Assembly (NCBI GenBank): GCA_001823695.1
Contig: MHVD01000004.1
Location: 1 to 41,428 of the forward strand
Direction: 5' to 3'
DNA from: Candidatus Zambryskibacteria bacterium RIFCSPHIGHO2_01_FULL_43_25
GTDB lineage: Bacteria; Patescibacteriota; Minisyncoccia; Phycocordibacterales; Zambryskibacteraceae
DNA: 41,428 nt
How positions within the stretch are numbered: the first letter of the stretch is position 1; every line of letters starts with the position of its first letter. Shown here piece by piece: positions 9,986 through 29,875 of the stretch. The position numbers were made by a program, and so were the translations under genes. Under the pieces are notes generated by a model, which made no database searches, was not told the origin of the DNA, and saw only the letters and a list, made by a program, of their open reading frames with translations.

Positions 9986-10019
9986 GGTATAATAACTTAC
10001 GATCGTAAGTTATTATACC
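9986..10019 (+). repeat. 34-bp perfect palindrome GGTATAATAACTTACGA|TCGTAAGTTATTATACC (PalA family) upstream of the SPFH gene promoter
   Basis: The arms are exact reverse complements. It shares the termini GGTATWATA...TATWATACC with the palindrome at 21512. Confidence 0.7.
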
Positions 10020-10081
10020 ATTTTAAAATAGCGAAAAGTTTCAGAGAGGTTTTTAGGATTTTTATGAGTTGAGATTTTTTG

Positions 10082-10110
10082 TTGACTTTTTTTACTGTCT
10101 GTGATATAAG
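10082..10110 (+). promoter_or_regulatory. sigma70-like promoter (TTGACT-17-TATAAG)
   Basis: -35 at 10082-10087 and -10 at 10105-10110. It lies about 50 nt upstream of the AAGGAAGG RBS and the ATG at 10161. Confidence 0.45.
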
Positions 10111-10160
10111 AAACAACGGAAAAACGTACGTTGCGAATCACTACAACAAGGAAGGTTGGA

Positions 10161-11588
10161 ATGATTACGTGGCAGAGATTCAAGCTGTACCTGTGGGAAT
10201 CATGGGAATCGGTGAAAGGACGATTCGAAAAACGAATCAAAGCCTTAACCGAAGCGTTGAAGAAGTTGTGGAAGAGGCGACGGGAGAAATCGGCTGATGA
10301 GCCGACAATTGGTAAGTCAGACGACGTGGTGGAAGCAGACTGGGAGTTTGTAGAGGAGTCTTCTGACAAAGGCCCAGCCAGAACCATTCCGACTCATGTC
10401 CGAGTTGGGCTGGTCATGCTGGCTGTTTTTCTCCTGTCGGCTCTCGGCCTCAGTCTCTTCGAGAACACTGTCCTCGGTCAGACCTGGAACTGGGGAGCAT
10501 TCGTTTTCTACCTCACAATCCTGTGGCTCTTCTTGAGCCTTAGGATAGTGAGGGAGAACCAGACTGGAGCTATCCTCTTTTTCCGGAAACCAATCACCAA
10601 GGCACAATCCGGTATTCATTTCGTCCCCTTTTTACTTTATGCTCTGGAAACCATTCAGAAAACAGTTATCCAGTTCGAAATTCCGGCAGAACCGGAGCTG
10701 GTATGGAAGGGAGACGATGACAAACTCCCGAAAGGGATGGCTCCGCCGGTTCGCATCACCCATGCGCAGTTGGAATCGGCAATGTTCTACAGGGATGACC
10801 TCGAGGACGAGCCTACCAAGCATTTCAGCGAGTTTAGTCCGGAAGAGCAAGCTGTGCTTAGGTCAGACACGCTTCACCGGAAACGGCTCGTCTCTGAGGC
10901 AAGCGGAATCGTAAGACTCCTAGTCAGAGATTACTGCAAGTTCCTCGGAACAATCGAGTCTATGGAAGGAAAGGAGGGAGCAAAGAAACAGATCGCTGAC
11001 ACAGTCGTGTCCACGTGGCAAGATGTGATCGCCAAACTCACCCCTGCTGAAGCCAACATGCACAAGAGACGAATTAGCAAGCTTGTTCTGAAAAGAGTTC
11101 GACAGAAGTGCGGCGAAGAGGCATATGAAGGCGAGAGCGAGAGTGAACGCAAGGAACGTGAGTGGGGTATCCACGTTGAAGACACCGAGCTCAAGCCCTT
11201 CGACTGGCGAACAACTGTCAACAAGGCAATCGCGGCTGCAAGCGCAGCGGGAATGAACAAGGAAACGACGATCACCGATGCCGAAGCGGAAGGTGAAGCG
11301 ACGGTCTTGATTGGCCGTGGCGTGGCGGAATCCGCATTCCTCCTTTCTCAAGCCAAAGCCAAGGGTGTGAAGGTGGTTGCCGATCAGATTCATGACAACC
11401 CCGCTGGCGAAATCGCCGCGCGTCTCCTGGCAATGGAAGAGATAGCGAAGAAGTCGCCGCTCACGATTGTTCCAACGGAAGGTATCTTCGGACCAGCGTT
11501 GGGAATTGCGGAAGCGATCAAAAAGGGAGGCCCTGGAAGTTCAAGAGACACCCCCGAGTCGTCTCCAGCATCTCCTCCAACCCCATAA
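10161..11588 (+). CDS. SPFH/band-7 (flotillin-like) domain membrane protein
   Basis: Two N-terminal TM helices. The SPFH-like core is VRENQTGAILFFRKPI...SGIHFVPFLLYALETIQKTVIQFEI. The C-terminal region has flotillin-type ITDAEAEGEATVLIGRGVAE...LTIVPTE. The start was chosen at the ATG with the AAGGAAGG RBS; the ORF track starts at 10131. Confidence 0.5.
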   Translation: MITWQRFKLYLWESWESVKGRFEKRIKALTEALKKLWKRRREKSADEPTIGKSDDVVEADWEFVEESSDKGPARTIPTHVRVGLVMLAVFLLSALGLSLFENTVLGQTWNWGAFVFYLTILWLFLSLRIVRENQTGAILFFRKPITKAQSGIHFVPFLLYALETIQKTVIQFEIPAEPELVWKGDDDKLPKGMAPPVRITHAQLESAMFYRDDLEDEPTKHFSEFSPEEQAVLRSDTLHRKRLVSEASGIVRLLVRDYCKFLGTIESMEGKEGAKKQIADTVVSTWQDVIAKLTPAEANMHKRRISKLVLKRVRQKCGEEAYEGESESERKEREWGIHVEDTELKPFDWRTTVNKAIAAASAAGMNKETTITDAEAEGEATVLIGRGVAESAFLLSQAKAKGVKVVADQIHDNPAGEIAARLLAMEEIAKKSPLTIVPTEGIFGPALGIAEAIKKGGPGSSRDTPESSPASPPTP

Positions 11589-11611
11589 ATCCCACCGAGG
11601 TTGTAGTTGAT

Positions 11612-11650
11612 GAGGCCGTCTTGCTCCCCGCGAGACGGCCTCTTTCATTT
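11612..11650 (+). terminator. Rho-independent terminator after the SPFH gene
   Basis: GAGGCCGTCT-tgctccccgcg-AGACGGCCTC followed by TTTCATTT. Confidence 0.7.
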
Positions 11651-11677
11651 GACAAAACAACTTTGATAGTATATAAT
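11649..11677 (+). promoter_or_regulatory. perfect-consensus sigma70 promoter (TTGACA-17-TATAAT)
   Basis: TTGACA at 11649-11654, exact 17-bp spacer, TATAAT at 11672-11677. A GGAGGA RBS lies at 11722 before the ATG at 11731. Confidence 0.65.
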
Positions 11678-11730
11678 GCACACGGAACCTGTACGCAAAG
11701 ACAACCTGTTTCCTATTTCTGGAGGATTCG

Positions 11731-12888
11731 ATGCGTGGCGCTCTGACCCCACTCGTGGTGTTGGTAGTAATCGGCCTTATCTTCTTTATCATCAGGTACA
11801 TTGCCAAAAACCCTGGTTCCGTAAAGAACCTACCTGGTCAACTTCCTAACTTGATCAAGAAGGTCCTTTCTAGTGGGGACTTTTGGATACCATTGATCTC
11901 AGTGCCCATAATTCAGTGGCTTCTGTGGTCGTTCTCAAACGACCGGTGGGAGGCATTCTGGGATTCTGGCAGATTTTTCCCGGTCATCATTGCGGCTTTT
12001 CTCATCGCTTGGATATGGAAGAGAAAGCCGTGGTGGAGCGCAACGGGAGTGGGTCTCATGACAGCCGGCAGTCTGGCTGTTATGTTTTTCCCTTCGAAGG
12101 AATCGACTGTCAAGGACAACCTGAAGATCGTCGCGTTGTCTGCGCTCGAGACGGTGCATTACGGCCCCGGATCTGGAGTGACAGGAGAAGTAAGCATCCT
12201 GTCCGGCCACGTCTTCCGTGCGCTTTGCACTGATACGGCGATGGTGGAGAGAATCCTTCGGGAATTCAGCGGCGACACAACGATGGCAAACATCGCCGCC
12301 GCGGAGTCCAATTGCCGGCATCAGGTCGGTGACTCAGTTGTAACAAACGAAAACGCCAATGGGACAAAAGACCGAGGGCTCTGGCAGATCAACGACGCCC
12401 GCAGGTTCTTGGCGGATTCTCTTGGGGTAAATTATATGACTCTTGACGGAAACTTCGCAGTGGCGAAGGAACTCCTCAAGAGGAACCCCGACTACTCCGA
12501 CTGGGATTCCTCTCGGAGATGCTGGGAGATGAGGATCTGCGGCCGCCAACCAACGACTGTCGGTAGCGTTCCTCAGACACCCATCTTTCAGCTCACGCTG
12601 GGAGAGGGGGAGAAGGAATTGCAGGTTCCTGCCGACCAGCCAAGCCAGAGGATCCTCATGATCCGCGGAACGCGGACCAACTTCTGGCCGCTGATCTGGA
12701 AAGGGCCATACCTCGTGATCGACGAGAGCGGGAAGCAATACCGTATAGAGACAGATTCAATCTGTCCAGCGGTAGACACTCCATCGAACATGGTGGCTTT
12801 CCAAGCCATTGATTCCGCCTTTGTCATGTTGGTGGAGAAAGTGTCGTACGACGACACCAGATTCATCGACCGAGGGTGCAAGAAGTAG
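11731..12888 (+). CDS. 4-TM membrane protein with a VirB1-like specialised lytic transglycosylase (lysozyme-like, GH23) domain
   Basis: The N-terminal ~120 aa contain four hydrophobic helices. The soluble domain carries AAESNCRHQVGDSVVTNENANGTKDRGLWQIND. This matches the ES...N.NGS.D.GLMQIN signature of VirB1/IpgF/EtgA-type lytic transglycosylases, which are tied to secretion systems and pili. The ~190-aa C-terminal region is unknown. Confidence 0.55.
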   Translation: MRGALTPLVVLVVIGLIFFIIRYIAKNPGSVKNLPGQLPNLIKKVLSSGDFWIPLISVPIIQWLLWSFSNDRWEAFWDSGRFFPVIIAAFLIAWIWKRKPWWSATGVGLMTAGSLAVMFFPSKESTVKDNLKIVALSALETVHYGPGSGVTGEVSILSGHVFRALCTDTAMVERILREFSGDTTMANIAAAESNCRHQVGDSVVTNENANGTKDRGLWQINDARRFLADSLGVNYMTLDGNFAVAKELLKRNPDYSDWDSSRRCWEMRICGRQPTTVGSVPQTPIFQLTLGEGEKELQVPADQPSQRILMIRGTRTNFWPLIWKGPYLVIDESGKQYRIETDSICPAVDTPSNMVAFQAIDSAFVMLVEKVSYDDTRFIDRGCKK

Positions 12889-12897
12889 GTTGCGGGG

Positions 12898-12990
12898 GCG
12901 GAGGTATCTTCGGATACCTTCGCCCCTTTTTCATTTGCAAAGCAAACCGCCGCGCTCCAAGAGGGCGCGGCGACTTGCTGATTTTTATTT
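12898..12990. terminator. convergent terminator pair between the + LT-domain gene and the minus-strand small-protein operon
   Basis: Hairpin GGCGGAGGTATC-ttcg-GATACCTTCGCC followed by CCTTTTT serves the + strand. Hairpin CGCCGCGC-tccaagagg-GCGCGGCG is followed, in minus orientation, by a T-rich tract. Confidence 0.55.
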
Positions 12991-12995
12991 TCTAG

Positions 12996-13274
12996 TTAGT
13001 TTCCAAATAGGAATGGCGCCGTTGTCGCAGGATCAATGCCAAATGTCTGCAGGATTATTCTTATAACACCGAATACAGCAAACATTATGAACATACCGAT
13101 TATTCCCCAAAGCATATTGCGCTGGCCGGTACTTCTTGCTTCTTCGTTGTCAGTATTTCTGACGAACTGGAATATCCCCCAGAAGAAAAGCAGTAGAGAT
13201 ACGGTGAAAAGGAGAACTATTATCGGATTGAGAATGAACTCATTAATCTTGTGTAAGAGCGGAGCGACACTCAT
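12996..13274 (-). CDS. small 2-TM protein, FFWG-type paralog 4 of 4 (lacks a signal peptide); VirB2/TrbC-pilin-like topology
   Basis: 92 aa: LLLFFWGIFQFVRNTDNEEARSTGQRNMLWGIIGMFIMFAVFGV. Two hydrophobic helices are separated by a short charged loop. Paralogous to the ORFs at 13294, 13837 and 14180. Confidence 0.5.
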   Translation of the reverse strand: MSVAPLLHKINEFILNPIIVLLFTVSLLLFFWGIFQFVRNTDNEEARSTGQRNMLWGIIGMFIMFAVFGVIRIILQTFGIDPATTAPFLFGN

Positions 13275-13293
13275 TGTCGGTTAAGAACTGGCT

Positions 13294-13653
13294 TTATGGC
13301 AAACCTGGAACACCCGGAACATTGGACAGATCGTCCCCGATATTAACGTCTAGAGCTTCTCCTATAAATTCAACCAAGCCCCAGACAGCTACCATAACGA
13401 ACAGGGCGACAATGCCCCAAATCATGATGTTCTTTCCCTCTTTTTTCTTCTCTTCATCACCAGCGGCCAGAATGTACTTCGCCAATCCCCAGAAGAAGAA
13501 TAGAAGGGCCAGAGCGACAACGATAGGAAGCAACACCTCGATAATTCTGCCTATTGACTGGAAGAAGTCCTCAACGTTTGTAAGTTGGGGGCCGCCAGCC
13601 AAAGCCATGAATGGCAATGCGTAAAGAGCTATAGTGCTTAGAACTTTCTTCAT
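13294..13653 (-). CDS. small secreted 2-TM protein, FFWG-type paralog 3; VirB2/TrbC-pilin-like topology
   Basis: 119 aa with signal peptide MKKVLSTIALYALPFMALAGG, then LLFFFWGLAKYILAAGDEEKKKEGKNIMIWGIVALFVMVAVWGLV. Confidence 0.55.
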   Translation of the reverse strand: MKKVLSTIALYALPFMALAGGPQLTNVEDFFQSIGRIIEVLLPIVVALALLFFFWGLAKYILAAGDEEKKKEGKNIMIWGIVALFVMVAVWGLVEFIGEALDVNIGDDLSNVPGVPGLP

Positions 13654-13836
13654 TTTTATTTATTAAATAATAAACGATTTATGACTACAAGCCTTGTTTA
13701 AAGCCCAACAAGAAATAGTTTCTTGTGTAAGGCCGCAATTAGGCCAGCCACAAACCTCTTGACCTTTCATTCCTAAAAGGACTTAAACACTATTTTACAA
13801 TGATTGACCAATTAAAACAATAAACGATGGGGATAA

Positions 13837-14172
13837 TCAGGGCGCTACTATGTTAAAGGGATTCAAGTGCGATGGACTGAATATATCCTGCTGAATCAAC
13901 TTCACGATCCCCCATATCGCGACCATCACAAAAAGGGAAACTATACCCCAGAGCATTATGCGTTTTCCTTCTTCTATGGCTTTCTCGTCTCCTGCGCTTC
14001 TTATCATTTTCGTTACGCCCCAGAAGAAAAATAACAAAGCTAAAGCGACAGCAATAGGTATCAAAAGAGCCACCAGAGAGCCGATAGCTAAAAGAAGCTC
14101 CTGGAAACTTGCTACCTGCGCTTTCGCCAGGAGCGGCGCAAAAAACAACATTAGTGTCAGTATATTTGCCAT
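13837..14172 (-). CDS. small secreted 2-TM protein, FFWG-type paralog 2
   Basis: Start taken at MANILTLMLFFAPLLAKAQ (signal peptide). The ORF track extends to 14235, which would overlap the previous gene. Core: LLFFFWGVTKMIRSAGDEKAIEEGKRIMLWGIVSLFVMVAIWGIV. Confidence 0.5.
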   Translation of the reverse strand: MANILTLMLFFAPLLAKAQVASFQELLLAIGSLVALLIPIAVALALLFFFWGVTKMIRSAGDEKAIEEGKRIMLWGIVSLFVMVAIWGIVKLIQQDIFSPSHLNPFNIVAP

Positions 14173-14179
14173 ATTCTTA

Positions 14180-14653
14180 TCAATTGCTACTGCCCCTGGT
14201 TGGCAAAAAAGGAAGTTGGATCGGTCCGCCGCCAATGAAGTCGGAGTAGAGGAGATTTATGATGCCCCAGATAGATACCATTATAAACAAGGCGATAATA
14301 CCCCAAAAAATCAGTCTCTTGCCGTCGGCAACTTTCTTCTCATCTCCAGCCGCGAGTATGAATTTCGACAGCCCCCAGAAAAAGACAAGCATCGTCAACG
14401 CAACCATAATTGGGAAAGCTGTATTTATGAAATTTAGAATAATGCAAATAAATTCAGAAAAGTTCTGCGGAGCTTGAGACGGGGTATTTGAACTAGGAGT
14501 CGGACAGGAAGCAGCAAAAGTTACAAGGGGAATAAAGAAAAAAGAAAAAAGAACTAGCCCGCCCGAACGACTGACATCGTTCAGTCGGGCGGAGAATAAG
14601 GAATAAAGAATAAGGAGAGCCAATAATTTATTTTTCGGGAAAAATTTAAGCAT
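14180..14653 (-). CDS. small secreted or lipoprotein-like 2-TM protein, FFWG-type paralog 1, with extended N-terminus
   Basis: 157 aa. N-terminal hydrophobic region includes LVTFAASC (lipobox-like). Core: MLVFFWGLSKFILAAGDEKKVADGKRLIFWGIIALFIMVSIWGII. Confidence 0.5.
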   Translation of the reverse strand: MLKFFPKNKLLALLILYSLFSARLNDVSRSGGLVLFSFFFIPLVTFAASCPTPSSNTPSQAPQNFSEFICIILNFINTAFPIMVALTMLVFFWGLSKFILAAGDEKKVADGKRLIFWGIIALFIMVSIWGIINLLYSDFIGGGPIQLPFLPTRGSSN

Positions 14654-14654
14654 C

Positions 14655-15038: not shown

Positions 15039-15044
15039 AATATT

Positions 15045-17190: not shown

Positions 17191-17192
17191 AC

Positions 17193-17720
17193 TCATTTCT
17201 TAAGCATCATTATACCAAAGTGATGTTCGCCTGCCGATATATCCTTTTCAACCGAAAATCCCTTGTTTGAGAAAAGCGAGACTGCTGAATCTCTGGTAAA
17301 TACGGCCGACTGTTCCGGACCAAGACCTTCGAAAGAATCCGTCCAGTCAATAATCAAAGCCCGCCCGCCGGACTTGAGTATCCGCGCCGCTTCTCCAGCA
17401 CAGGCCTCTTTATTGGAAATTTGAAACAGCACATTGGACATAAAAACCCAGTCAGCGCTCGCATCCTTCAGTCTGGTGCCTCCTATTTGTTCTATATCGC
17501 CCCAGATTATCTCAACATTGGAGAGGTTGCGGCGGCGCGCCTCGTTTTTTATACGAGCCAAAAGATCCTTCTGAATGTCCACGGCATAAACTCGGCCTGA
17601 CTCGCCTACTTTAAGCGCCGCCGCCAGGGTGTAGTGGCCGGAGCCGGAGCCAAAGTCAACCACTACTTGCCCCAAAAGCAAGTTAAGCTGGTCTATATTT
17701 TTTTGAGGGTCGGAGAACAT
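17193..17720 (-). CDS. class I SAM-dependent methyltransferase
   Basis: Motif I VVDFGSGSGHYT and Rossmann-fold MTase spacing. 175 aa. Confidence 0.7.
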   Translation of the reverse strand: MFSDPQKNIDQLNLLLGQVVVDFGSGSGHYTLAAALKVGESGRVYAVDIQKDLLARIKNEARRRNLSNVEIIWGDIEQIGGTRLKDASADWVFMSNVLFQISNKEACAGEAARILKSGGRALIIDWTDSFEGLGPEQSAVFTRDSAVSLFSNKGFSVEKDISAGEHHFGIMMLKK

Positions 17721-17896
17721 AAGATAGACAAGAAACTAAAAACTTAATACAAAAAACTCAAAACCTGTTATTTAATTATAACTCACATATCAAGAATTGG
17801 TTATGGATAATTACACTACCCAATAGCGCTAGGTTCGCAACAAAATGTTACAGGTTGCAAGTTTTAAGTTTTAAGTTTTCCGTTGCAAGTTATACG

Positions 17897-20371
17897 CTAC
17901 AAGCATATAAGGCTTGCTAATTTGTCCCCTTCCCGCAATTTCATTATTCTAACGCCTTGAGTGGAGCGCGACAGTTCCGGAATTTCATTTATTCCCACTC
18001 TAATGACTTGCCCTTTTTGGGAAATTGCCACCAATTCTTCCTCTTCTTCCGTTACAACTGCCGATGATATCAGATTGCCCGTCTTTGCCGTTATCTTCCC
18101 TGTTTTTATTCCAGAACCGCCGCGCTTTTGAACCTTGTATTCTCCAATATCAGTTTTCTTACCGTAGCCATTCTGACTAATTACCAGCAACTTCGGGCTC
18201 GGAGCGTCTTTGCGGACAACTTGAGCCGCGATTATGCTGTCACTCTTGGATAGCTTCATCACCCTGACTCCTGCCGCGTTTCTACCCATTTCCCTGACAT
18301 CGGACTCCTTAAATCTGATTGCTTGGCCTTTTGTGGAAGCCAAAGACACGGTATCGCCCTTGCTTGCGAGCGAAGCAGACACCAACAAGTCGTCAGATGA
18401 GAGTTTAATGGCAATTATTCCGCTTGAGCGCACATCCCGAAGCGTCTCTGCCGCCACTCTTTTCCCAACTCCTTGTTTTGTAACCATGAACACGGAGAGG
18501 CCCTCCTTGGCTTTCGCTTCTTTTGGCACAGGCAAAATAGAAGTTATTTTTTCGTCGTCTCCCAGAGATATGAAATTCATTATTGATTTGCCGCGAGTCG
18601 CCCTTTTGCCTTCCGGAATATCGTACATCTTTATCTGATAGACTTTGCCCCGGTCTGTGAAAAAGAGAAGGTCGCTGTGAGTGCTGGTGGTCAAAAATTG
18701 CGTTACAAAGTCTTCCTCTTTGGTATTGAGGTCAACAACACCGACACCGCCGCGACGCTGCTTTTTGTATTCATCCGGATTCGTCCTCTTGATGTATCCG
18801 CCGGCGGTGAGTACTAGCGCGTTTTCTTCGTCTGCAATCAGATCTTCCGGCGAGAATATTTTTGCTCCGTGTTTGACCACTTTCGTCCTCCTTTCATCGC
18901 CATACTTCTCCTTGAGTTCCTTAAGCTCGTCTTTTATTATGCCAAGGATTTTTTTCGGATTTTTCAATATATCTTCAAGCAGAGAAATAAGTTCTTGTAT
19001 TGACTTGAGTTCGTCTTCAATTTTCTTGCGCTCAAGACCGGCAAGTCTCTGCAGTTTCATTTCCAAAATGGCAACTGACTGTTTGTCGGAGAACTTGAAC
19101 TCCTTCATCAGGCCCTTATGCGCATCTTCAACTGTCTTTGATGCTTTTATGAGCTTGATAATCGCATCTATGTGGTCCAGCGCTTTTTTGAGACCGAACA
19201 GAATGTGCTCGCGGTCTTTTGCCTTATTCAGGTCAAATTCCGTCTTTCGGCGGATAACTTCGGCTCGATGGACCGTAAACTCTTCCAGAATGTCTCGGAG
19301 AGAGAGTGTTTGGGGTATACCTTCTACAAGCGCTACAAGATTGAAATGGAATGTATCCTCAAGCGCCGTGTGCTTATAAAGAGCGTTAAGAACTTTTTGC
19401 GGCTGGCTGCCGCCCTTGAGCTCTATGACAATTCTTATATCTTTGGTGGATTCGTCGCGCAAATCTCTTATGCCGTCAATCTTCTTTTCGTGCACTAGGT
19501 CGGCAATTTTTTGTATCAAATCGGATTTATTGACTCTATAAGGAATGGCGGAAATTATTATTTGGTATTGGCCGAGTTTAGTTTCGGTTATTTCGGCAAT
19601 ACCACGCGTTACTACACCGCCGCGGCCAGTGGCATAAGCATGATGAATATCTTTCTCATTGAAAATAAGTCCGCCGGTCGGAAAGTCGGGACCCTTTATG
19701 AATTGCAACAAATCTTCCGTCGTGGCATCGGTATTGTCCAGAAGGTGGCAGACCGCGTCGGCGACTTCGCCAAGATTGTGCGGAGGAATATTGGTCGCCA
19801 TTCCGACCGCAATGCCCAGGGTACCGTTCAGAAGTAGGTTTGGAACTGCAGCCGGCAGAACTTCGGGTTCCTTTTTGGTGCCATCGTAATTGGGGCGGAA
19901 ATTGACTGTATTCTTGTCAATGTCCCGCAGAAGCTCGCTTGAAAGCCGAGACATTTTCGCTTCGGTGTATCTGTAAGCGGCGGCGGCATCGCCGTCTATT
20001 GAACCGAAGTTGCCCTGCCCGAGTACTAGCGGGTAACGAAAAGAAAAATCTTGGGCCATTTTAACCATCGCATCATATACGGACGCGTCGCCATGGGGAT
20101 GATAGCTTCCCAATACCGCACCGACGACTGTCGCCGACTTCCTGAATTTGGCGCTAGCAGTCAAGCCCATCTCATTCATTGCATATAAAATTCTCCTGTG
20201 AACGGGCTTCAAGCCATCGCGAACGTCAGGAAGAGCGCGGGCAGTAATAACCGACATCGCGTAGTCTAGATACGACTCCTTCATTTCGCTCGTTATGCTA
20301 CGTGAAACCACTTGAGAGATTGGCGCTCCCGCTTCTTCACTTTCCTTTTCTTCCTTTTTCTTTTCAGCCAT
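17897..20371 (-). CDS. gyrA: DNA gyrase subunit A
   Basis: 824 aa with the active-site region [29 protein letters not shown] and C-terminal beta-pinwheel repeats. Confidence 0.93.
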
Positions 20372-20772: not shown

Positions 20773-21447
20773 TTAAGAACTACTAAGCACTATTATATCG
20801 CCCTCCCTGCCTTCTAAGTCCTTTCGTTTGAGAGTCAGCTTGTCTTGCGGCTTTATCCCTTCCTCTCCGCCTTCTTTGAGAAAAGCCTTGAGGCCGCCGT
20901 CCTTGCCCGTACTGTCAAAAGACATCGGTATCATAATCGCCGGTTCCAGTTTAACAGAAAGTTTGTAAGCGTCCGAAGGAGACAGGACTTCTCCGCCGCC
21001 AATAGGCACAAACAAAACATCAATACCGTCGAGCGCTTCCTTGGTTTCCGGACTTAATTCGGCGCTGTTTTGAATTACGCCCAGAAGACAGAGATTCATG
21101 TTTTCAAGAGATACGAGGTAAATGGTGTTTATCTGCTCTTTGCCGTCGTAATTTGTCTTTGAAGAAAAACCTTGAACAGCAATGTCATTGATTTCATAGG
21201 CGCCCGGACCGCTGATAACGAACGGCTTTTTGTCGCCACGAGAAGCGTTATCTACACCGTTGAAATCGGGATGATTGAGACTTGTGAGGACGATATCGGA
21301 GCCGAAACTGCTTGACGGATATTTTGATTCTTTGGATACGGGATTATAGGCGATAATCGTATCGCCAAACTGAATCCTGAAAGATTGAACACCCTGATAA
21401 GTGATTATCATTAGGCCTATTATAGCAAATTGGACGCTAAAAAACAA
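20773..21447 (-). CDS. MBL-fold (UPF0173-like) protein with degenerate metal-binding motif
   Basis: The C-terminal pattern DVLFVPIGGGEVLSPSDAYKLSVKLEPAIMIPMSFD resembles UPF0173 metal-dependent hydrolases. The expected HxHxDH is replaced by TSLNHPDFNG. N-terminal TM helix. Confidence 0.4.
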   Translation of the reverse strand: MFFSVQFAIIGLMIITYQGVQSFRIQFGDTIIAYNPVSKESKYPSSSFGSDIVLTSLNHPDFNGVDNASRGDKKPFVISGPGAYEINDIAVQGFSSKTNYDGKEQINTIYLVSLENMNLCLLGVIQNSAELSPETKEALDGIDVLFVPIGGGEVLSPSDAYKLSVKLEPAIMIPMSFDSTGKDGGLKAFLKEGGEEGIKPQDKLTLKRKDLEGREGDIIVLSSS

Positions 21448-21511: not shown

Positions 21512-21547
21512 GGTATTATAAAAACGCTATAGCGTTTTTATAATACC
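21512..21547 (+). repeat. 36-bp perfect palindrome GGTATTATAAAAACGC-TATA-GCGTTTTTATAATACC (PalA family) in the divergent intergenic region
   Basis: Exact reverse-complement arms with a TATA centre flanked by GC. The termini match the palindrome at 9986. Confidence 0.7.
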
Positions 21548-21653: not shown

Positions 21654-21890
21654 ATGAGGTACAACGCCAAGCTCTCCCTTGTGGTCGTGGCAATCATCTT
21701 GGCCGCAATTCTTTTTGCTGGCTTAGATGCGCCGGAGATCGGAATAATCTTCGGCGGATCGGCTCCGGCCATTACAGTGTGGAGACATCTACGTAGATGT
21801 CCACATTGTTTGAGTTGGCGAACCAAAAAAGATAGGTGGATTGGCCACCGCAGGTGTCTTGCCTGCTATTATACATACTTCAGGAAATAA
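21654..21890 (+). CDS. possible small protein: N-terminal TM helix plus C-terminal CxxC...CxxC zinc ribbon (low confidence; may be non-coding)
   Basis: The ORF encodes LSLVVVAIILAAILFAGL...CPHC-x17-CLAC. It lies in a GC-rich stretch next to the RNase P-like region. Confidence 0.2.
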   Translation: MRYNAKLSLVVVAIILAAILFAGLDAPEIGIIFGGSAPAITVWRHLRRCPHCLSWRTKKDRWIGHRRCLACYYTYFRK

Positions 21891-21894
21891 CCTG

Positions 21895-22268
21895 GGGTTT
21901 GCGCTTACTCTCCCTTCCACATGTTGCACGTGGAGGGAGTTGACTTCTCTCCCATAGGTGCAACTATATATTATAGAGCAGTACCCGTAGGCCTCCCCGT
22001 TCTATCGGCTAACGGATCACCCTCTTTCCGAGAAAGGAGACCCCCGCGCGATGTTAGTTGGAGCGATCCTCTTGTGGAGTCCCGTTACCTCCGGAAAGAA
22101 ACTGGATCCCAGTTGAGGGTCAAAAGGTGGGGGTGCCTGTCAGCTAAACCTGCCTAAGCCTCTCCGGGTACTTAGGCGAGACGTAACTGGCAGGCGCCTC
22201 TTCCTGAAAACATCACGGCTCTGCCGAGCCGAGAAGTCTTTCCCTCCCCCCACAGCGTGTGCGGGGGA
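21895..22268 (-). ncRNA. rnpB: GC-rich structured non-coding region with RNase P RNA (type A)-like motifs; candidate rnpB, strand uncertain
   Basis: No ORF with protein-like composition; local GC is about 55%. In minus orientation a hairpin CCCCCGCACA-cgc-UGUGGGGGG is followed by AGGGAAAGACUUCUCGGCUC (compare the P3-J3/4-P4 sequence GGAGGAAAGUCCGGGCUCC). Further on, GCCAGUUACGUCUCGCC resembles GCCAGGUAACGCCUGG. Complementary segments GACTTCTC (about 21946) and GAGAAGTC (about 22230) could form P4. Not verified; a covariance model is needed. Confidence 0.3.
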
Positions 22269-22281
22269 TTTTCAATTTAAG

Positions 22282-22323
22282 ACCATCACATTTTTTCTGC
22301 TATAGCAGAAAAAATGTGATGGT
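22282..22323 (+). repeat. 42-bp perfect hairpin/palindrome ACCATCACATTTTTTCTGC-TATA-GCAGAAAAAATGTGATGGT (PalB family)
   Basis: 19-bp exact stem with a TATA loop. The terminal 10 nt and the GC-TATA-GC centre are identical to the element at 29834. Confidence 0.75.
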
Positions 22324-22485
22324 TGAATTCAATTTAAAAAAGTTGGAAAAAACTTTACAAAACATACTAAATCATTTAGTATAAGGTCGCTTTCGCAGGA
22401 GAGCACAATTATTAGAATATTCGTCGTGTAATCCCGTTTCGGAGTCACTCTGACAAAGCGAGAAGCGGACCATGGCGCATTTTTT

Positions 22486-23631: not shown

Positions 23632-23715
23632 CTTTCAGCTGCTTGCCCGTTCAATTTTTACGAAGTAAAAATTGTTCGGGTCAGGTGTCAGTTTTCAGGA
23701 AGGCTAAAAAGCATC

Positions 23716-23750
23716 AAAAAACCGTCCGCCTACTGGCGGAGTGGTTTTTT
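23716..23750. terminator. bidirectional intrinsic terminator, CCGCC-hairpin family copy 1 (A-run, CCGTCCGCC-TACT-GGCGGAGTGG, T-run)
   Basis: Lies between the convergent rpsA (+) and pth (-). Confidence 0.7.
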
Positions 23751-23811
23751 GTAGTCCATCACATGCGCGCACATGGAGGAACTGCTTATCCTAAAGCCTA
23801 GCGCCTAGAGC

Positions 23812-24441: not shown

Positions 24442-24532
24442 AATTGAATAATATATCACAATTTAATTTTTAGTCCTCTGCCTTTTATTTTGCGTTTTTA
24501 TCCAACACCGTTGTGCAACTCAAACTAATCTT

Positions 24533-25216
24533 GTGTCAAACGGACTTAGTGTAATACAATCAATGGGCATTTTAGAAAAAATGGACATTCAAAAAGAAAC
24601 GAACAATCCGTCAGCTGACGGACCAGCCGAAAATAATTCCTCAACGCCGGCACAAGAAAACAAGAAAGGCAGTTTTGGAGAGTTTATAAAGTTCATAGTC
24701 ATTGCCGCTGTTATCGTAATTCCCTTCCGGATGTTTATCGCCCAGCCGTTTGTGGTAAACGGCGCTTCAATGGATCCGACTTTCGAATCAGGCGAGTACT
24801 TGATAGTTGACCAGCTGACTTACCAGTTTGAAAGCCCGAAAAGGGGTTCAGTGCTTATATTCAGATATCCGAAAGATCCTAAAAAATTTTTTATAAAGAG
24901 AATAGCCGGTCTTCCGGGTGAAACTCTAGAGTTGCGCGGCGAAATAATAACGATAAAAAATTCCGACCATCCGGAGGGTTTCCAGCTTGACGAGCCGTAT
25001 CTCAAGTACACCAGAGCGGACAACATGACCGTGGTTTTGGGTCCAGATGAATACTTTGTTTTGGGCGACAACAGACAGGCCAGTTCCGACTCGCGAGTCT
25101 GGGGCACGTTGCCGGAAAATTTGATAGTCGGCAGACCGATTATTCGGCTCTTGCCGCCGAACAAGATTGATTGGCTCCCCGGCGACTATTCAGAAAATAT
25201 TGAAAAAAACAATTGA
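24533..25216 (+). CDS. lepB: signal peptidase I (S26 family)
   Basis: Catalytic Ser motif GASMDPT, Lys motif KRIAGLPGE and conserved GDNRQASSDSRVWG. N-terminal TM helix. The start codon is ambiguous (24533, 24563 or 24581). Confidence 0.85.
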   Translation: MSNGLSVIQSMGILEKMDIQKETNNPSADGPAENNSSTPAQENKKGSFGEFIKFIVIAAVIVIPFRMFIAQPFVVNGASMDPTFESGEYLIVDQLTYQFESPKRGSVLIFRYPKDPKKFFIKRIAGLPGETLELRGEIITIKNSDHPEGFQLDEPYLKYTRADNMTVVLGPDEYFVLGDNRQASSDSRVWGTLPENLIVGRPIIRLLPPNKIDWLPGDYSENIEKNN

Positions 25217-26379
25217 CTCTTATGTCTAACAGCAAGAGAGCATCAAGCGTAGCAAGACCGTTGAGCAAATCCGAAGAGATAGCGATGTATTTCGGGTTTG
25301 TACCGATTGAAAATCCGTCAATCTGCAGAAAAGACAACCAGATCGCTAAGCAGTTGAAAGAGAGACCGGCTAGAGACGAAAGAATTTGCTTCTGCAATCC
25401 AGCGGAAAAGGCCGCCCTACTGCGAACGTATGAGGAAAGTGATTTGAATCAATGGCCACACCCGGTGCAGGTCTATTACAAGAAAGAAGCCGACAGTCGA
25501 ATTGGCAGTTTGGTCGGGCTGGATATTTTCGGCGCCAATACCAGCGCCAGCAATGCCCTGTTAATCAGAAGCGCAGTTTCAATGCTTGAAGAAAAAGGTC
25601 TTGACGACCTGTTTGTGGAAGTAAACAGCATCGGCGATAAAAATTCATTTACCGAATTTGAAAGACAGGTGGTAACTTTTATAAGAAAAAATGCAAACGA
25701 CATACCCGCGTCCATTCACAGACTTTTGAGGCACAATCCCTTCCACATTCTAAATGCCGAAGATCCGAAAATAAAAGATTTTGCCGAAAACGCACCAAAG
25801 GCGATTAACTTTTTGTCGGAAAACTCCAGAGTGTACTTAAAAGAAGTGATTGAATATCTGGAAGGTTTCGGCATGCCTTATATTATCAAACATTCTCTTA
25901 CGGCCAATCCAACGGTTTGCTCCGGAGTAATATTCCAAATAAAAAGCGAGAAGAACGAAGACGGCGACGTACTGGCCATGGGATTCTCGTATGGCAAATT
26001 CTCAAGAAGGGTCGGCCTAAGAAGAGAATTGCCGGCAATCGGTGTGACAATACATTTAGGAGAAGATAAGAAAATCAAATCTCCGATGCCGAAAATCAAG
26101 TTTTCGCTGATTCAACTCGGCTTTGAAGCGAAATTGAAAACTCTAAACATAGTTGAAGCGCTGAGAAGAGCCCGCGTGCCGGTATCGTTTTCCCTTATGA
26201 GAGACAAGCTAGCTAGCCAGCTTTCAAGCGCAGAGGATAGTAATGTCCCCTATGTAATAATCATAGGCCAGAAAGAGGCGCTGGAAGACACCGTCGTGAT
26301 CAGAGATATGGATACCAGAGTTCAAGAAATTGTGCCCGCATCTGAACTGTCAAACTACATTAGAAGAATCAGGGGCTAA
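25213..26379 (+). CDS. histidyl-tRNA-synthetase-like class II aaRS homolog with degenerate catalytic motifs and an intact anticodon-binding domain
   Basis: Collinear with HisRS: the middle (LRHNPFHILNAEDPKIKDF versus R.NPLRILD.K.P) and the C-terminal anticodon-binding domain (YVIIIGQKEALEDTVVIRDMDT) both align. LRPEGTA is replaced by CNPAEKA, FRYERPQKGRYRQF by VYYKKEADSRIGSL, GLDYYT by ANPTVCS and GGGRYD by MGFSYG. The alignment is from memory and needs checking. Confidence 0.45.
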   Translation: MTLMSNSKRASSVARPLSKSEEIAMYFGFVPIENPSICRKDNQIAKQLKERPARDERICFCNPAEKAALLRTYEESDLNQWPHPVQVYYKKEADSRIGSLVGLDIFGANTSASNALLIRSAVSMLEEKGLDDLFVEVNSIGDKNSFTEFERQVVTFIRKNANDIPASIHRLLRHNPFHILNAEDPKIKDFAENAPKAINFLSENSRVYLKEVIEYLEGFGMPYIIKHSLTANPTVCSGVIFQIKSEKNEDGDVLAMGFSYGKFSRRVGLRRELPAIGVTIHLGEDKKIKSPMPKIKFSLIQLGFEAKLKTLNIVEALRRARVPVSFSLMRDKLASQLSSAEDSNVPYVIIIGQKEALEDTVVIRDMDTRVQEIVPASELSNYIRRIRG

Positions 26380-26456
26380 CGACCCACCGGCCAAGATGGG
26401 CCGCTTTACCGACATCTATTGCCACAGGTATTCTTAGGTGTTATACTTGCGCATCT

Positions 26457-26708
26457 ATGGCAATAAACGTGGAAATAAAAAAGACCGGAAATGAGAACAA
26501 TATCTCAATTTTGAGGAAATTCTCCAAGCGTGTTCAATCTGCCGGATTACTGCAGAAAGTCCGCTCCAAGCGATACAGCGAACGAAACATGTCGGAAGCT
26601 GTGAAGAAAAAGAAGGCCCTGAAATCCATCAAAAGGCGCGAAGAGATCGCGATGATGATTAAGATGGGTAAAATCATACCAAATGCCAAAAGAGGCCACC
26701 GTAGATAA
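26457..26708 (+). CDS. rpsU: 30S ribosomal protein S21
   Basis: 83 aa. ILRKFSKRVQSAGLLQKVRSKRYSERNMSE matches the bS21 pattern (LRRFKR...G.L.E.RRR.YEKP). Confidence 0.7.
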   Translation: MAINVEIKKTGNENNISILRKFSKRVQSAGLLQKVRSKRYSERNMSEAVKKKKALKSIKRREEIAMMIKMGKIIPNAKRGHRR

Positions 26709-27087
26709 CAGCAATTTCTCTATAAAAAATCTGACAAAAGGCAAGCCACCACGCTTGCCTTTTGCAAGGATAAAGGCGGAAATTTTAGGCAAGAAATACA
26801 ATCTCTCTCTAGTCTTTGCTGGAAACGCTCTGACAGAGAGACTCAACACCACATACAGAGGCAAGCATAAGCCGACAAACGTACTGTCTTTCCCACTGTC
26901 AAAAACCTCTGGAGAAATTTTTGTGAACCTAAAACAAGCAAAAAAAGAGGCAAGAAAGTTTGGAGAAGGTTACAGAAACTTTGTCGGATTATTGTTTATC
27001 CACGGTCTTCTCCATTTGAAAGATATGCGCCACGGTATTAAAATGGAGCAAGCTGAAAAGCGTTTGAGAAAAAGGTTTCTCATTTGA
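26683..27087 (+). CDS. ybeY: rRNA maturation endoribonuclease YbeY
   Basis: Zinc motif HGLLHLKDMRHG (H-x3-H-x5-H) plus TNVLSFP. Overlaps the rpsU 3' end by 26 nt. Confidence 0.75.
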   Translation: MPKEATVDNSNFSIKNLTKGKPPRLPFARIKAEILGKKYNLSLVFAGNALTERLNTTYRGKHKPTNVLSFPLSKTSGEIFVNLKQAKKEARKFGEGYRNFVGLLFIHGLLHLKDMRHGIKMEQAEKRLRKRFLI

Positions 27088-27183
27088 GAACACACTGCAA
27101 CTGACCAACGGTGACTCGCAATTAAATAACCGACAGCGATATTCAGTTGTCAGGCGCAAGTCGCAGATTGTTAGTTAGTTATT

Positions 27184-28374
27184 ATGGCAAGAAACATCGC
27201 GATAGGAATAGACATAGGCACATACCAGATCAAGGTGGTCGCTGCCGAACATTTACAGGGCGACAAAATGCGTCCCAAGGTTTTGGGTACTGGTTTTGCG
27301 GAATCGCGTGGTTTGCGCCACGGCTATATTGTCAACGTCTCGGAGGTTACGAGGAGTCTTAAAAACGCTCTGGCCCAAGTTGAAAAAACGTCGCAGTTGC
27401 CAATAAAAAAGGCTTACATTTCCGTGGGCGGCATTGGAATCAGCAGCACTGTCTCCCAAGGCAGTGCGCTTATTTCCAGAGCTGATTCAGAAATAACCGA
27501 ACTTGACCTGTCAAAGGTCATGGAAGCCTGCGAAAACTCAATACCCGCGTCTCTTACGCAAAACAGACGGGTCATACACCGCATCCCCCTTCAGTACAAA
27601 ATTGACGGCAAATTGTCGCTCGGCGATCCAGTCGGAATGAAAGGAATGAAGCTTGAAATAAAAGCGATGTTCGTCACTTGCCTGGAACAGCATCTAAAAT
27701 CGCTCATTGAAGCGGTGGAAGAGACTGGTGTTGAAGTCATTGCGGAGGTTGCCTCACCCATTGCCGCCGCCCACGTAACACTGACAAAAGCGCAGAAGAT
27801 AGCCGGCTGCGTACTGGCAAATATCGGCTCCGAAACCCTATCCATAGTCGTGTTTGAAAACGACATACCAACTTCACTTGAAGTTTTCCCAATTGGTTCA
27901 ACCGACATCACGAAAGATATAGCGCTGGGTCTCCGAATCCCGCTTGAAGAAGCGGAGAGCATAAAACACGGCAGTATTACAGCCACGAGTTTTCCGAAAA
28001 AGAAGCTTGATGAAATAGTTGCCGCCAGACTTTCCGATATGTTTGAGCTAATTGAGGCTCATTTGAAAAAAATAGGAAGAAACGGACTGCTGCCAGCCGG
28101 AATCATTATCACCGGCGGAGGTTCAAGTATCGTTGACATTGCCGAGATCGCAAAATCTTCGCTTCGGCTGCCATCAAGGGTGGCACATATTAATTTCCCG
28201 GATAAAGGAAGTGCAAGATTTGACGATACGCTGTTTGCTGTAGCTTACGGACTTTGCATTTTGGGTTTGACTCAAGACTTAGACGATGGAGAAGGAATGC
28301 TTGGCGGATTTATCAGAGGCAAAGGCGGAGCTTTCGGAGGCATAAAGAGTTGGATAAAACAATTTTTGCCGTAA
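27184..28374 (+). CDS. ftsA: cell division protein FtsA
   Basis: Actin-fold N-terminus IAIGIDIGTYQIKVV, 396 aa, immediately upstream of ftsZ. Confidence 0.85.
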   Translation: MARNIAIGIDIGTYQIKVVAAEHLQGDKMRPKVLGTGFAESRGLRHGYIVNVSEVTRSLKNALAQVEKTSQLPIKKAYISVGGIGISSTVSQGSALISRADSEITELDLSKVMEACENSIPASLTQNRRVIHRIPLQYKIDGKLSLGDPVGMKGMKLEIKAMFVTCLEQHLKSLIEAVEETGVEVIAEVASPIAAAHVTLTKAQKIAGCVLANIGSETLSIVVFENDIPTSLEVFPIGSTDITKDIALGLRIPLEEAESIKHGSITATSFPKKKLDEIVAARLSDMFELIEAHLKKIGRNGLLPAGIIITGGGSSIVDIAEIAKSSLRLPSRVAHINFPDKGSARFDDTLFAVAYGLCILGLTQDLDDGEGMLGGFIRGKGGAFGGIKSWIKQFLP

Positions 28375-28553
28375 AAATTAACTAAATACAGCAGACGAAA
28401 AACTTAAAAACAAACGACCTCTTGAACCTGCTGTCGGGAGTTAAAAGTTATAAGTTTTCAGTTACAAGGACACAATATAGACTTAATGTCAAGTAGCTTC
28501 CCTTTTTAGACCTTTTTGCTAATATGTAGGCACTTTTAAACGAGGAAACAAAT

Positions 28554-29735
28554 ATGCCACAAATTAAACCAGAAGTAGAGTCATTTGCGAGGATAAAGGT
28601 CATCGGCGTTGGCGGATCGGGCAAAAACGCCATAAACCACATGATAAACTCCAAGGTCAGGGGTGTGGACTTTGTAGCTGTAAACACCGATGCACAGGAC
28701 CTCCATCATTCAATGGCCAAAAGGAAGATCCATATCGGAAAGAACTTGACTAGGGGCCTGGGTACGGGAATGAATGTTGAGCTCGGCAAAAAAGCTGTAG
28801 AAGAAACGAAAGAAGAGATACAGGAAGCTATGAAGGGAGCCGACATGGTCTTCATCGCCTGTGGAATGGGCGGCGGCACGGGCACCGGAGCGGCACCAGT
28901 TCTTGCTCGAACAGCGAGAGAAATCGGCTGCCTTACAGTCGCAGTCGTCACCAAACCATTTTTCTTTGAAGGCCTCCAGAGAATGCGATTGGCCGAACAG
29001 GGAATTGAAGATCTGCGCGGTTCGGTAGATGCGCTGATTGTCATTCCAAACGATCGCTTGCTCGCAACAATTGACAAAGATACAACGGCAAAAAATGCGT
29101 TTGCACTTTGCGATGATATTTTGCGCCGCGCCGTTGAAGGAATAACCGATATCATAACCACCCCCGGTATAATCAACATTGACTTTGCCGATATCAGAGC
29201 AGTAATGGAAGGGGCTGGCGCGGCGCTTATGGGCATCGGCTACGCCAGTGGAGAAAAGAGAGCAGAGGAGGCGGCGCGAATCGCCATCAACTCTCCCCTT
29301 CTGGAAATTTCAATTACCGGCGCTCGCGGTGTGCTCTTCTCTATCGCCGGTGGCGATGATCTCACAATGTTTGAAATACAAGATGCCGCAAAAATTATCA
29401 CCGAATCCGCCGACCCGAATGCCAAGATTATATTCGGAACCGCCAGAGACGAGAAGCTCAAAAAGGGAGAAATCAAGATTACCGTTATCGCTTCAGGTTT
29501 TCCCGAAAATCTGGTAAAGAAGACCCTTTTCCACGAAGACGGAGACATTGAAAAGAAAGGACGAATTTACAACTCATTCCCGACTTTTACCCAGAAAGAA
29601 AAGGAAAAAGAGAAAGAAAAGGATAAGGAAAAAGACGAAGAAAAGAAAGTTGAACCGCCCCAGACTGCTCCGGCCGTTGAGGATAATGACGACGATTGGG
29701 GCGCCGTGCCGGCGTTTTTGAGAAGAAAAAAATAA
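28554..29735 (+). CDS. ftsZ: cell division GTPase FtsZ
   Basis: Tubulin signature GGGTGTGAAPV, T7 loop, and a C-terminal K/E-rich linker followed by DDDWGAVPAFLRRKK. Confidence 0.93.
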   Translation: MPQIKPEVESFARIKVIGVGGSGKNAINHMINSKVRGVDFVAVNTDAQDLHHSMAKRKIHIGKNLTRGLGTGMNVELGKKAVEETKEEIQEAMKGADMVFIACGMGGGTGTGAAPVLARTAREIGCLTVAVVTKPFFFEGLQRMRLAEQGIEDLRGSVDALIVIPNDRLLATIDKDTTAKNAFALCDDILRRAVEGITDIITTPGIINIDFADIRAVMEGAGAALMGIGYASGEKRAEEAARIAINSPLLEISITGARGVLFSIAGGDDLTMFEIQDAAKIITESADPNAKIIFGTARDEKLKKGEIKITVIASGFPENLVKKTLFHEDGDIEKKGRIYNSFPTFTQKEKEKEKEKDKEKDEEKKVEPPQTAPAVEDNDDDWGAVPAFLRRKK

Positions 29736-29786
29736 ATTAGGCACTAGTTATTAGACTCTAGGCTTTAGAACAACCAAACCACACCA

Positions 29787-29822
29787 ACAAACCGTTCCGC
29801 CTGCTGGCGGACGGTTTGTTGT
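29787..29822. terminator. intrinsic terminator, CCGCC-hairpin family copy 2 (AACAAACCGTTCCGCC-TGCT-GGCGGACGGTTTGTT)
   Basis: Immediately after ftsZ. Confidence 0.7.
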
Positions 29823-29833
29823 TTACATTTTTC

Positions 29834-29875
29834 ACCATCACATAAAATCCGCTATAGCGGATTTTATGTGATGGT
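29834..29875 (+). repeat. 42-bp perfect hairpin/palindrome ACCATCACATAAAATCCGC-TATA-GCGGATTTTATGTGATGGT (PalB family copy 2)
   Basis: 19-bp exact stem. Same termini and centre as 22282, with compensatory differences inside the arms. Confidence 0.75.

Follow-up and report, generated by a model that had tools for sequence, protein, structure and literature searches.

The stretch of DNA analysed in this study, referred to below as the window (41,428 nucleotides), is a chromosome segment of a Candidatus Zambryskibacteria bacterium (Parcubacteria, candidate phyla radiation (CPR)) from the Rifle aquifer. The genes carried by the window include those for IF-2, RbfA, a GyrA/ParC-like protein, S1, Pth, YbeY, FtsA, FtsZ, a TrxB-like protein and a sortase, together with six scattered tRNA genes. 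Here, we describe long perfect palindromes in its intergenic spacers, a metagenomic family of such palindromes with mirror-symmetric variation between copies, and the linkage of this family to genes for short proteins of the PaaX type. Four palindromes had been pointed out in the initial annotation of the window; these, and a degenerate copy, are listed below.

9985..10020, element 1: perfect palindrome of 36 bp, arms TGGTATAATAACTTACGA and TCGTAAGTTATTATACCA, centre CGATCG; the extended -10-like box TGGTATAAT lies at both ends, facing inward; 110 nt upstream of the SPFH/Band7 gene (10131-11588).
21512..21547, element 2: perfect palindrome of 36 bp, centre GCTATAGC; flanked by the MBL-fold gene (20773-21447, minus strand) and, divergent from it, by a small open reading frame (ORF; 21654-21890, plus strand); TATAAT lies close to each outer end, facing outward, and TTGACA begins 2 nt past the right end.
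22282..22323, element 3: perfect palindrome of 42 bp, ACCATCACAT-TTTTTCT-GCTATAGC-AGAAAAA-ATGTGATGGT; 14 nt past a terminator-like hairpin; the -35 of the predicted S1 promoter (22354-22382) follows after 30 nt.
29834..29875, element 4: perfect palindrome of 42 bp, ACCATCACAT-AAAATCC-GCTATAGC-GGATTTT-ATGTGATGGT; 11 nt past the FtsZ terminator (29782-29822), with TTGGCA beginning 3 nt past the right end.
23755..23777: degenerate third copy of the ACCATCACAT type (TCCATCACATGCGCGCACATGGA), 5 nt past the S1 terminator.

The four exact palindromes were confirmed at their places, with lengths of 36, 36, 42 and 42 bp; the one recorded at 9986 extends one base further on each side (9985-10020). As had been claimed, three of the four share an identical centre, GCTATAGC, which is found in the window only in elements 2-4 (3 occurrences against 0.27 expected). 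Also upheld was the observation that elements 3 and 4 have common termini, ACCATCACAT...ATGTGATGGT, around differing, self-complementary arm segments: the arms differ only at positions 11-14 and 17, each difference being mirrored on the opposite arm, and each arm is identical between the two elements over its outer 10 nt and its central 4 nt. A chance origin is excluded, because the window contains 9 perfect palindromes with arms of at least 10 bp, compared with a mean of 0.25 and a maximum of 2 in 100 shuffles. The GC content, given as 40% in the initial annotation, was measured as 45.5% for the window.

Elements 2-4 were intact in 5-6 independent assemblies from ENA and JGI, and are thus not assembly artefacts. 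Six strain-level contigs were 99.9-100% identical to the window and gave no covariation signal. One strain-level contig (L006, ERZ27254756) matches the window up to the FtsZ stop codon and is fully diverged beyond it (L006 11183-11367), being either a strain variant or an assembly join in the variable FtsZ-trxB spacer. Megablast of positions 9000-30000 against known phages and plasmids gave 0 matches, and a known mobile element as source was dropped on this account. In a search of the window against Rfam only the 6 tRNAs reached the gathering score; hits at the palindromes were sub-threshold and to generic miRNA-hairpin models only.

Extension of the pattern search beyond the window, which the initial annotation had suggested as a check, revealed a large family. 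A scan of metagenomes with TCACAT-N4-10-GCTATAGC-N4-10-ATGTGA identified 70 matches at 69 loci. Perfect mirror symmetry was observed in 32 of the 70, with approximately 20 different inner segments, and many others were one mismatch away from it; the chance of symmetry for a 7-mer is about 6e-5. At locus L039, a single mirrored C/T plus G/A pair distinguishes two copies that are 740 bp apart. In the 517 kb of low-GC DNA fetched, GCTATAGC occurred 83 times (6.8 expected), and approximately 17 of the 24 GCTATAGC sites that had not been used for fetching loci had complementary arms, mostly with RTYACAT as the outer motif. The family members are single AT-rich palindromes of 28-48 bp and 21-44% GC, commonly perfect, and nearly all of them are intergenic. 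There are 3-4 copies in the 41-kb window and at least 5 on five contigs of one metagenome-assembled genome (MAG). Among the symmetric or near-symmetric copies, 24 lie between co-directional genes, 8 (at least 5 of them independent) between convergent genes and 3 between divergent genes. The compensatory arm variation noted initially is therefore real and general, but it is not specific evidence of selection for a hairpin, because many copies linked to genes have asymmetric inner segments together with symmetric outer blocks and centre. What is conserved in the family are blocks of sequence, not pairing alone.

Several matches were set aside. Two matches to ACCATCACAT-N22-ATGTGATGGT in a MAG labelled Dysgonomonas were unrelated: the contigs concerned (L007 and L008; JAVBJR010000133.1 and JAVBJR010000602.1) carry TGTGATGGT repeat arrays beside ORF fragments resembling eukaryote-like exons of the fibronectin-III/Ig type, and are probably eukaryotic contamination of the bin. 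High-GC matches (L014, L022, L049, L064 and L066) were asymmetric and were discarded as chance or coding. Giant palindromes or terminal inverted repeats centred on a family palindrome were seen at L045 1-104, over the whole 1216-nt contig L032 and at the ends of L050; these contigs are probably snap-back or assembly artefacts seeded by the palindrome. A collection of viral contigs gave 0 matches for either type of termini, and a search for ACCATCACAT-N22-ATGTGATGGT in 185,579 species-representative genomes, a collection that does not hold the source genome, gave chance matches only.

All-vs-all comparison and clustering of the ORFs flanking the palindromes yielded one recurrent family, of 175-191 aa, which was identified as PaaX_M (PF20803, the Cas2-like central domain of PaaX) with E-values of 1e-19 to 1e-22. 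By tblastn and hidden Markov model searches, a gene of this type lies within approximately 150 nt of a palindrome in about 12 unique loci. Wherever the flanks of such a gene could be read, there was a site on either side of it; the upstream sites are often perfect, and the downstream ones are usually quasi-palindromes, sometimes with GCTATCGC as centre. No PaaX-type gene away from a palindrome was found in the fetched DNA, except for one diverged paralogue at L024. This paralogue is located approximately 3 kb from the GCTATAGC palindrome of that locus, between CGATCG-centred sites of its own that contain TTACGATCGTA, the core of element 1 of the window. No hit to PaaX_C was obtained, the CPR proteins ending after the Cas2-like domain at 175-191 aa. 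An AlphaFold (AF2) model with a predicted local distance difference test (pLDDT) of 75 has N-terminal helices and a beta-hairpin wing followed by a ferredoxin-like domain, and the Asp at the Cas2 catalytic position (D115) is invariant. Since a sequence search of the PDB with the profile of the family gave nothing significant (AspA, E 0.2), a fold search was needed for identification; its best PDB match was E. coli PaaX (8a39, E 9e-5), followed by Rv0674 and then by Cas2 proteins. The family has at least 758 members, all the named ones from the CPR, with several per MAG and many on contigs of 1-3 kb.

The arms of the sites differ between paralogues, even on one contig (TTCACATCTGTT at L082 and AATACTAAAAAATCTT at L083; ATYACATTATTSTT in the type termed B). 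In MAG Ga0075954, the pair of sites linked to the gene and four solo copies share the arm ATCACATTATTGTT. Type-B sites end 11-12 nt before the ATG and have AATAAT in the proximal arm, and at L083 the order is palindrome, TATAAT, ATG. The two PaaX-like paralogues at L082 (10001-12908) and L083 (10001-13625), on one contig of 59.7 kb, are directly followed by uvrB and by a uvrA paralogue, and uvrC and uvrA lie close by, an arrangement that may serve the control of excision-repair genes.

Gene order was kept in four relatives of the window (L009-L012; S1 identity 81-88%). The spacers turn over fast among them, and L009, L010 and L012 each have repeated perfect palindromes of their own. In L009, element 2 is unchanged and the core of element 3 is retained, with two uncompensated changes in the outer 3 bp. 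This conservation says little alone, because the whole MBL-S1 spacer is approximately 90% identical between the window and L009. A third L009 copy, the perfect TCACATTTTTTTGCTATAGCAAAAAAATGTGA, is located after S1, in the same spacer as the 23755 copy of the window, and has, relative to element 3, lost one base in a mirrored deletion; in place of element 4 and its surroundings, L009 has unrelated sequence. L010 has CACTTGGAAAC-N3-GTTTCCAAGTG three times (14322, 18127, 19294), and L012 has ATTTGTACGATATATCGTACAAAT twice plus perfect palindromes of 40 and 48 bp (14832, 18348, 18421-18468, 14658), all in the same spacers as the palindromes of the window. Only classical terminators with A-run, GC stem and T-run were found in L011. 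Alignment of the MBL-S1 and FtsZ-trxB spacers with the four relatives revealed no clean insertion or empty-site edges, turnover being by replacement.

Further features of these regions were noted. Between the small ORF and element 3, at about 21900-22280, a non-coding stretch of approximately 380 nt is about 88-90% conserved in L009. This stretch appears rich in GC and structured, has a hairpin like that of a terminator (CCCCCCACAGCGTGTGCGGGGG-TTTT) at its end and matches nothing in Rfam; it is possibly an RNA gene not yet described. The MBL-S1 spacer of L012 contains a distinct non-coding insert of approximately 330 nt (9515-9870), which has a good promoter (TTGACA-17-TATGAT) at one end and a strong terminator at the other and is a second candidate for a small RNA gene. 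Neither insert is found in L010 or L011. The ORF just downstream of element 2 (21654-21890) encodes 78 aa (MRYNAKLSLVVVAIIL...), in which CPHC...CLAC comes after a single hydrophobic helix; this ORF, which is shorter than usual ORF-length cut-offs, is conserved in L009. Additionally, L009 has small-gene inserts after S1 (11240-11585, 84 aa) and after FtsZ (approximately 17890-18141, 56 aa), both absent from the window. As both start with a near-identical promoter block (GACTTGACTTTTATGTAT...TGnTATAAY), they look like a repeated cassette of a promoter plus a small membrane protein.

The initial annotation had overlooked three perfect palindromes of the window (8358-8401, 40693-40738 and 40862-40895) and three degenerate copies (8703-8732, 40383-40420 and the one at 23755-23777). 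Apart from the last, these are listed here with the ArsR-type genes beside them.

8358..8401: perfect 21+2+21 palindrome (44 bp), centre CT-TG-AG, just upstream of ArsR-type gene 1.
8406..8699, plus strand: ArsR-type winged-helix gene 1, 97 aa, flanked by the 8358 palindrome and the copy at 8703-8732.
8703..8732: copy of the 8358 palindrome, inverted and degenerate, with centre CA, on the downstream side of ArsR-type gene 1.
40383..40420: quasi-palindromic, inverted copy of the 40693 element within the 3' coding end of ArsR-type gene 2 (codons ..SILMFLRTIE-stop).
40386..40655, minus strand: ArsR-type winged-helix gene 2, 89 aa, 39% identical to gene 1.
40693..40738: perfect 22+2+22 palindrome (46 bp) upstream of ArsR-type gene 2, core ATTCnATAGTTCT-TG-AGAAC..
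40862..40895: perfect palindrome resembling a bidirectional terminator.

The 8358 palindrome is a putative element of the same kind but of a different family, and a candidate operator. The 89-aa ArsR-type protein was found with 60-78% identity across Zambryski-, Woyke-, Brenner-, Roizman- and Pacebacteria. In each of the four contexts that were fetched (L085-L088, approximately 1417-1775), a palindrome of 36-52 bp, often perfect, lies directly upstream of the orthologue, with the core ATTCTnAnnTTCT-TG/CA-AGAAnnTnAGAAT conserved over four CPR phyla; in three of the four it overlaps promoters resembling TTGAGA-16/17-TATAAT. In Zambryskibacteria, the downstream copy is encoded in the last codons of the gene (..SILMFLRTLE-stop). 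This long palindrome behaves as a conserved operator, because the protein has no enzyme domain and the upstream site is kept across phyla, and the parallel supports an operator reading of the PaaX-linked family. A further quasi-palindrome of 42 bp in the window (39566-39607; 12% GC, 19 of 21 pairs, centre CTTAAG) is located between a 274-aa gene and tRNA-Val.

The palindromes at 9986 and 21512 had been grouped as a family by their termini, GGTATWATA. The motif is most simply the extended -10 box of this lineage, TGGTATAAT, which also occurs at 17209, at 33034, 8 nt before the start codon at 33025, and at L009 11272 behind a TTGACT -35; it is read as an extended -10 because of the last two occurrences. 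Element 1 would then overlie the predicted promoter of the SPFH gene. The box at 33025-33042 (minus strand) precedes the ATG of a CAP-domain gene (32045-33025), a geometry which recurs in similar form at PaaX-like genes elsewhere and suggests that the mRNA of the CAP-domain gene is leaderless or near-leaderless. TTATAA-17-TATAAT can be read in element 2 on both strands, and TTGGCA-16-CAAAAT starts 3 nt beyond element 4. A role of GCTATAGC as a -10 box with a -35 located 16-17 nt upstream was also considered; it applied to L019 alone and is no general feature.

None of the four elements was listed by terminator scans. The absence of a following T-run, reported in the initial annotation, was confirmed for all four, and the stems have 28-38% GC; the elements are not terminators. 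The terminator directly before the 29834 copy was likewise confirmed, and element 3 stands in a similar position, so that elements 3, 4 and the 23755 copy each lie 5-14 nt past a terminator or terminator-like hairpin.

Of the three possibilities put forward initially, sites of a dimeric regulator are the best supported, by the approximately 12 PaaX-linked loci and by the layout of the PaaX operator, and a miniature hairpin repeat family is kept as the main rival. The elements are most likely binding sites of short PaaX-type dimeric regulators, their symmetry being kept by dimer recognition and arm homogenisation, and we put the probability of this reading at about 0.55. Elements 2-4 belong to a family RTYACAT-N4-9-GCTATAGC-N4-9-ATGTRAY that is widespread in the CPR/Patescibacteria. 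The proteins that would recognise it consist of an N-terminal winged helix and a Cas2-like dimerisation domain, without the ligand-binding C-terminal domain of PaaX. In a dimer on the palindrome, the two winged helices would read the outer blocks, which are ACCATCACAT in this genome, GCTATAGC as the conserved centre would lie under the dimer axis, and the 4-9 nt between outer block and centre would not be read and so could vary between sites. A PaaX-like layout, with the half-sites at the outer ends and a long spacer between them, would account for elements 3 and 4 having common termini and different interiors. Each gene of the protein family has a pair of sites of its own, one over the promoter or start region and one downstream, which fits autoregulation. 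The copies in the window are solo ones without an adjoining regulator gene, before S1, after FtsZ and between the MBL gene and the small ORF, at which the protein would repress or insulate transcription; element 1 would be a site of the same type that has CGATCG as its centre and overlies an extended -10 promoter (TGGTATAAT). The exact symmetry, which includes the segment that would not be read, most likely results from the symmetry of the dimer together with homogenisation of the arms by template switching at quasi-palindromes, an established mutational process (PMC7202029).

A number of observations weigh against regulator binding sites. No PaaX_M gene was found in the window or in the 21-kb loci of the four relatives. 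At least 5 independent solo copies are located in convergent spacers, where there is no promoter to control (the convergent cases were verified), and the genes facing solo copies share no common function; going by names recognised by eye, we take them to include rpoB, rmuC, tsaE, rsmI, tig, ndk and smpB. One MAG has four solo copies without a single difference over 36 bp, which is more like recent copying than like the sites of a regulon. Within the family, the outer motif stands 4-9 nt from the centre, a variation that a single rigid protein would not easily accommodate. A copy of element 4 with 42 of 43 positions identical lies in an unrelated context (L035), chimeric arms occur in L042/L059 and L026, and homology of the type-B module begins and ends at the outer edges of the palindromes. 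Lastly, the promoter hexamers by elements 2-4 have only 9 of 12 consensus matches, about the density in shuffled sequence, and judged on their letters are only suggestive of promoters.

Much of this would be expected of selfish palindromes resembling those termed REP (repetitive extragenic palindromic) sequences and REPINs (REP doublets forming hairpins), that is, dispersed repeats that generate copies, with the PaaX/Cas2-like gene as mobiliser or caretaker in the manner of a RAYT (REP-associated tyrosine transposase). The Cas2-like nuclease would possibly act on the extruded hairpin; alternatively, solo copies would be scars, left when the bracketed module was lost through recombination of one of its palindromes with the other. 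Dispersed extragenic copies, together with a gene lying between palindromes of its own, are the hallmark of RAYT/REPIN systems (PMC3337134). Such an origin would suit the identical solo copies on four contigs of one MAG, the near-copy of element 4, the chimeric arms, the solo copies in convergent spacers and beside terminators, the palindrome family peculiar to each relative and the homology edges of type B, as well as a protein family that is multi-copy per MAG, often on 1-3 kb contigs, and keeps D115 invariant. However, the bracketed gene has no HUH/Y1 transposase domain, and paralogues on one contig are diverged and have different arms, so that they are not recent copies. The divergence of elements 3 and 4 is confined to one block, with the outer and central parts invariant, which points to sequence-specific constraint and not to drift of copies. 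ArsR-type genes without an enzyme domain are bracketed alike, with an upstream site conserved across phyla, no clean pair of insertion and empty site was found in the spacers aligned with the relatives, and edges of homology are also expected from conserved operators within fast-diverging spacers. We consider a REPIN-like explanation unlikely, and more serious than the other rivals. A REPIN-like family and regulation are not mutually exclusive. For REPINs, Bertels and Rainey suggest that the RAYT protein may bind the elements and tune neighbouring genes (PMC3337134). A CPR-wide version, with the PaaX/Cas2-like protein in place of an HUH transposase copying, maintaining or processing palindromes (for instance by action of the Cas2-like domain, with its invariant Asp, on the extruded hairpin) that spread intergenically and were secondarily co-opted for regulation, seems distinctly unlikely.

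A function of the hairpin itself is very unlikely. Stems of 16-19 bp with a UAUA loop would serve as protectors of RNA 3' ends, RNase III sites or terminators independent of a U-tract, or would act as DNA cruciforms. Folding as single-strand DNA hairpins gave -12.6 to -21.7 kcal/mol, with z-scores of -7 to -12, and the strict Watson-Crick symmetry without G-T pairs is what working on both strands would need; the positions just past terminators (elements 3, 4 and the 23755 copy) and in convergent spacers are also in keeping with it. However, structure alone leaves the conserved outer and central blocks unexplained, many gene-linked members are unable to form perfect stems, and upstream copies either overlap a start codon or stop 11-12 nt short of it. 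Moreover, the stems are AT-rich and lack a T-run, whereas the canonical A-run/GC-stem/T-run terminators abundant in the same genomes look different.

Mirrored promoters deserve equally little confidence. The GGTATWATA termini would be -10 boxes, element 2 a bidirectional promoter, and element 1 a strong extended -10 plus its mirror image, which would agree with the recurrence of TGGTATAAT as a promoter-like box and with the placing of element 2 exactly between divergent genes with its hexamers on both strands. The palindromic interior of element 2 and its family-typical GCTATAGC centre are left unexplained, however, and the mirror promoter of element 1 would fire antisense into a tRNA gene. 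The proposal is in any case compatible with an operator laid over a promoter and is not an alternative to it.

Sites for site-specific recombination (dif, pdif, lox), in which the conserved 8-bp centre would be the crossover, the arms would bind the recombinase and the genes would be exchangeable cassettes, are extremely unlikely: the invariant centre with variable arms, the genes between two sites and the chimeric left and right arms of some copies would suit them, but the only recurrent neighbour is the PaaX-type gene and not a recombinase (the window was not searched exhaustively for recombinases), arm length and spacing vary (4-9 nt) without a fixed 11-6-11 or 13-8-13 geometry, and arms differ between sites in one genome.

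Sites of PaaX-type regulators would be of interest because transcriptional regulation is almost undescribed in the CPR/Patescibacteria, which cannot be cultured by themselves and have few genes for recognisable regulators. An easily scanned motif (RTYACAT-N-GCTATAGC-N-ATGTRAY, with its CGATCG and CT-TG-AG relatives) is tied to two protein families abundant in the CPR, the short PaaX-like and the 89-aa ArsR-like proteins, so that pairs of regulator and site would be readable straight from metagenomes and would provide defined protein/DNA pairs for in-vitro work. No description of a pairing of PaaX-type proteins with palindromes was found in the searchable literature. If the solo copies do self-propagate, they would represent a new type of REP-like system with a Cas2-fold partner. 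For annotation, the results caution against taking long perfect palindromes in these genomes for terminators or for assembly artefacts.

Comparison with known systems begins with intrinsic (bidirectional) terminators, with which the elements have in common that they are perfect intergenic palindromes, some in convergent spacers; they differ in having neither a GC-rich stem nor a flanking A-run or T-run, and true terminators adjoin elements 3 and 4. The 8358 and 40693 families of the window resemble ArsR/SmtB repressors in that the gene for a small winged-helix protein has a palindrome across the region of its own promoter; in the 40693 family, this palindrome is conserved across phyla, as is the protein. 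However, the classical ArsR/SmtB operator is a 12-2-12 repeat, much shorter than the operators of the window type, which have 36-52 bp and are often perfect, and the genes of the window carry a second copy downstream or inside the 3' end.

Like REP and REPIN sequences, the CPR palindromes are nearly all extragenic, appear dispersed, form lineage-specific classes and flank an associated gene. Unlike them, they are AT-rich and commonly perfect, whereas REPs are approximately 20 nt long, GC-rich and imperfect; REP doublets with spacers do not occur among them, and the associated protein is not a HUH/Y1 (IS200/IS605-like) transposase.

PaaX of E. coli and Pseudomonas shows a likeness in both protein and site. 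E. coli PaaX forms a dimer, carries a winged helix at its N-terminus, binds TGATTC-N27-GAATCA and is a repressor of its own promoter (review, PMC9493321). In the CPR proteins, too, the winged helix is N-terminal and a Cas2-like dimerisation domain comes next; they differ in lacking the phenylacetyl-CoA-binding C-terminal domain and in being multi-copy per genome, with no paa genes involved. Both kinds of site consist of two distant inverted hexamers, the N27 spacer of the PaaX operator corresponding to TCACAT-N16-26-ATGTGA in the CPR family and to ACCATCACAT-N22-ATGTGATGGT in elements 3 and 4, with the half-sites at the outer ends. To this layout the CPR sites add a conserved centre, GCTATAGC, and frequent perfection over 28-48 bp, and they bracket a gene on both sides and also stand solo beside housekeeping genes, features that are not described for PaaX.

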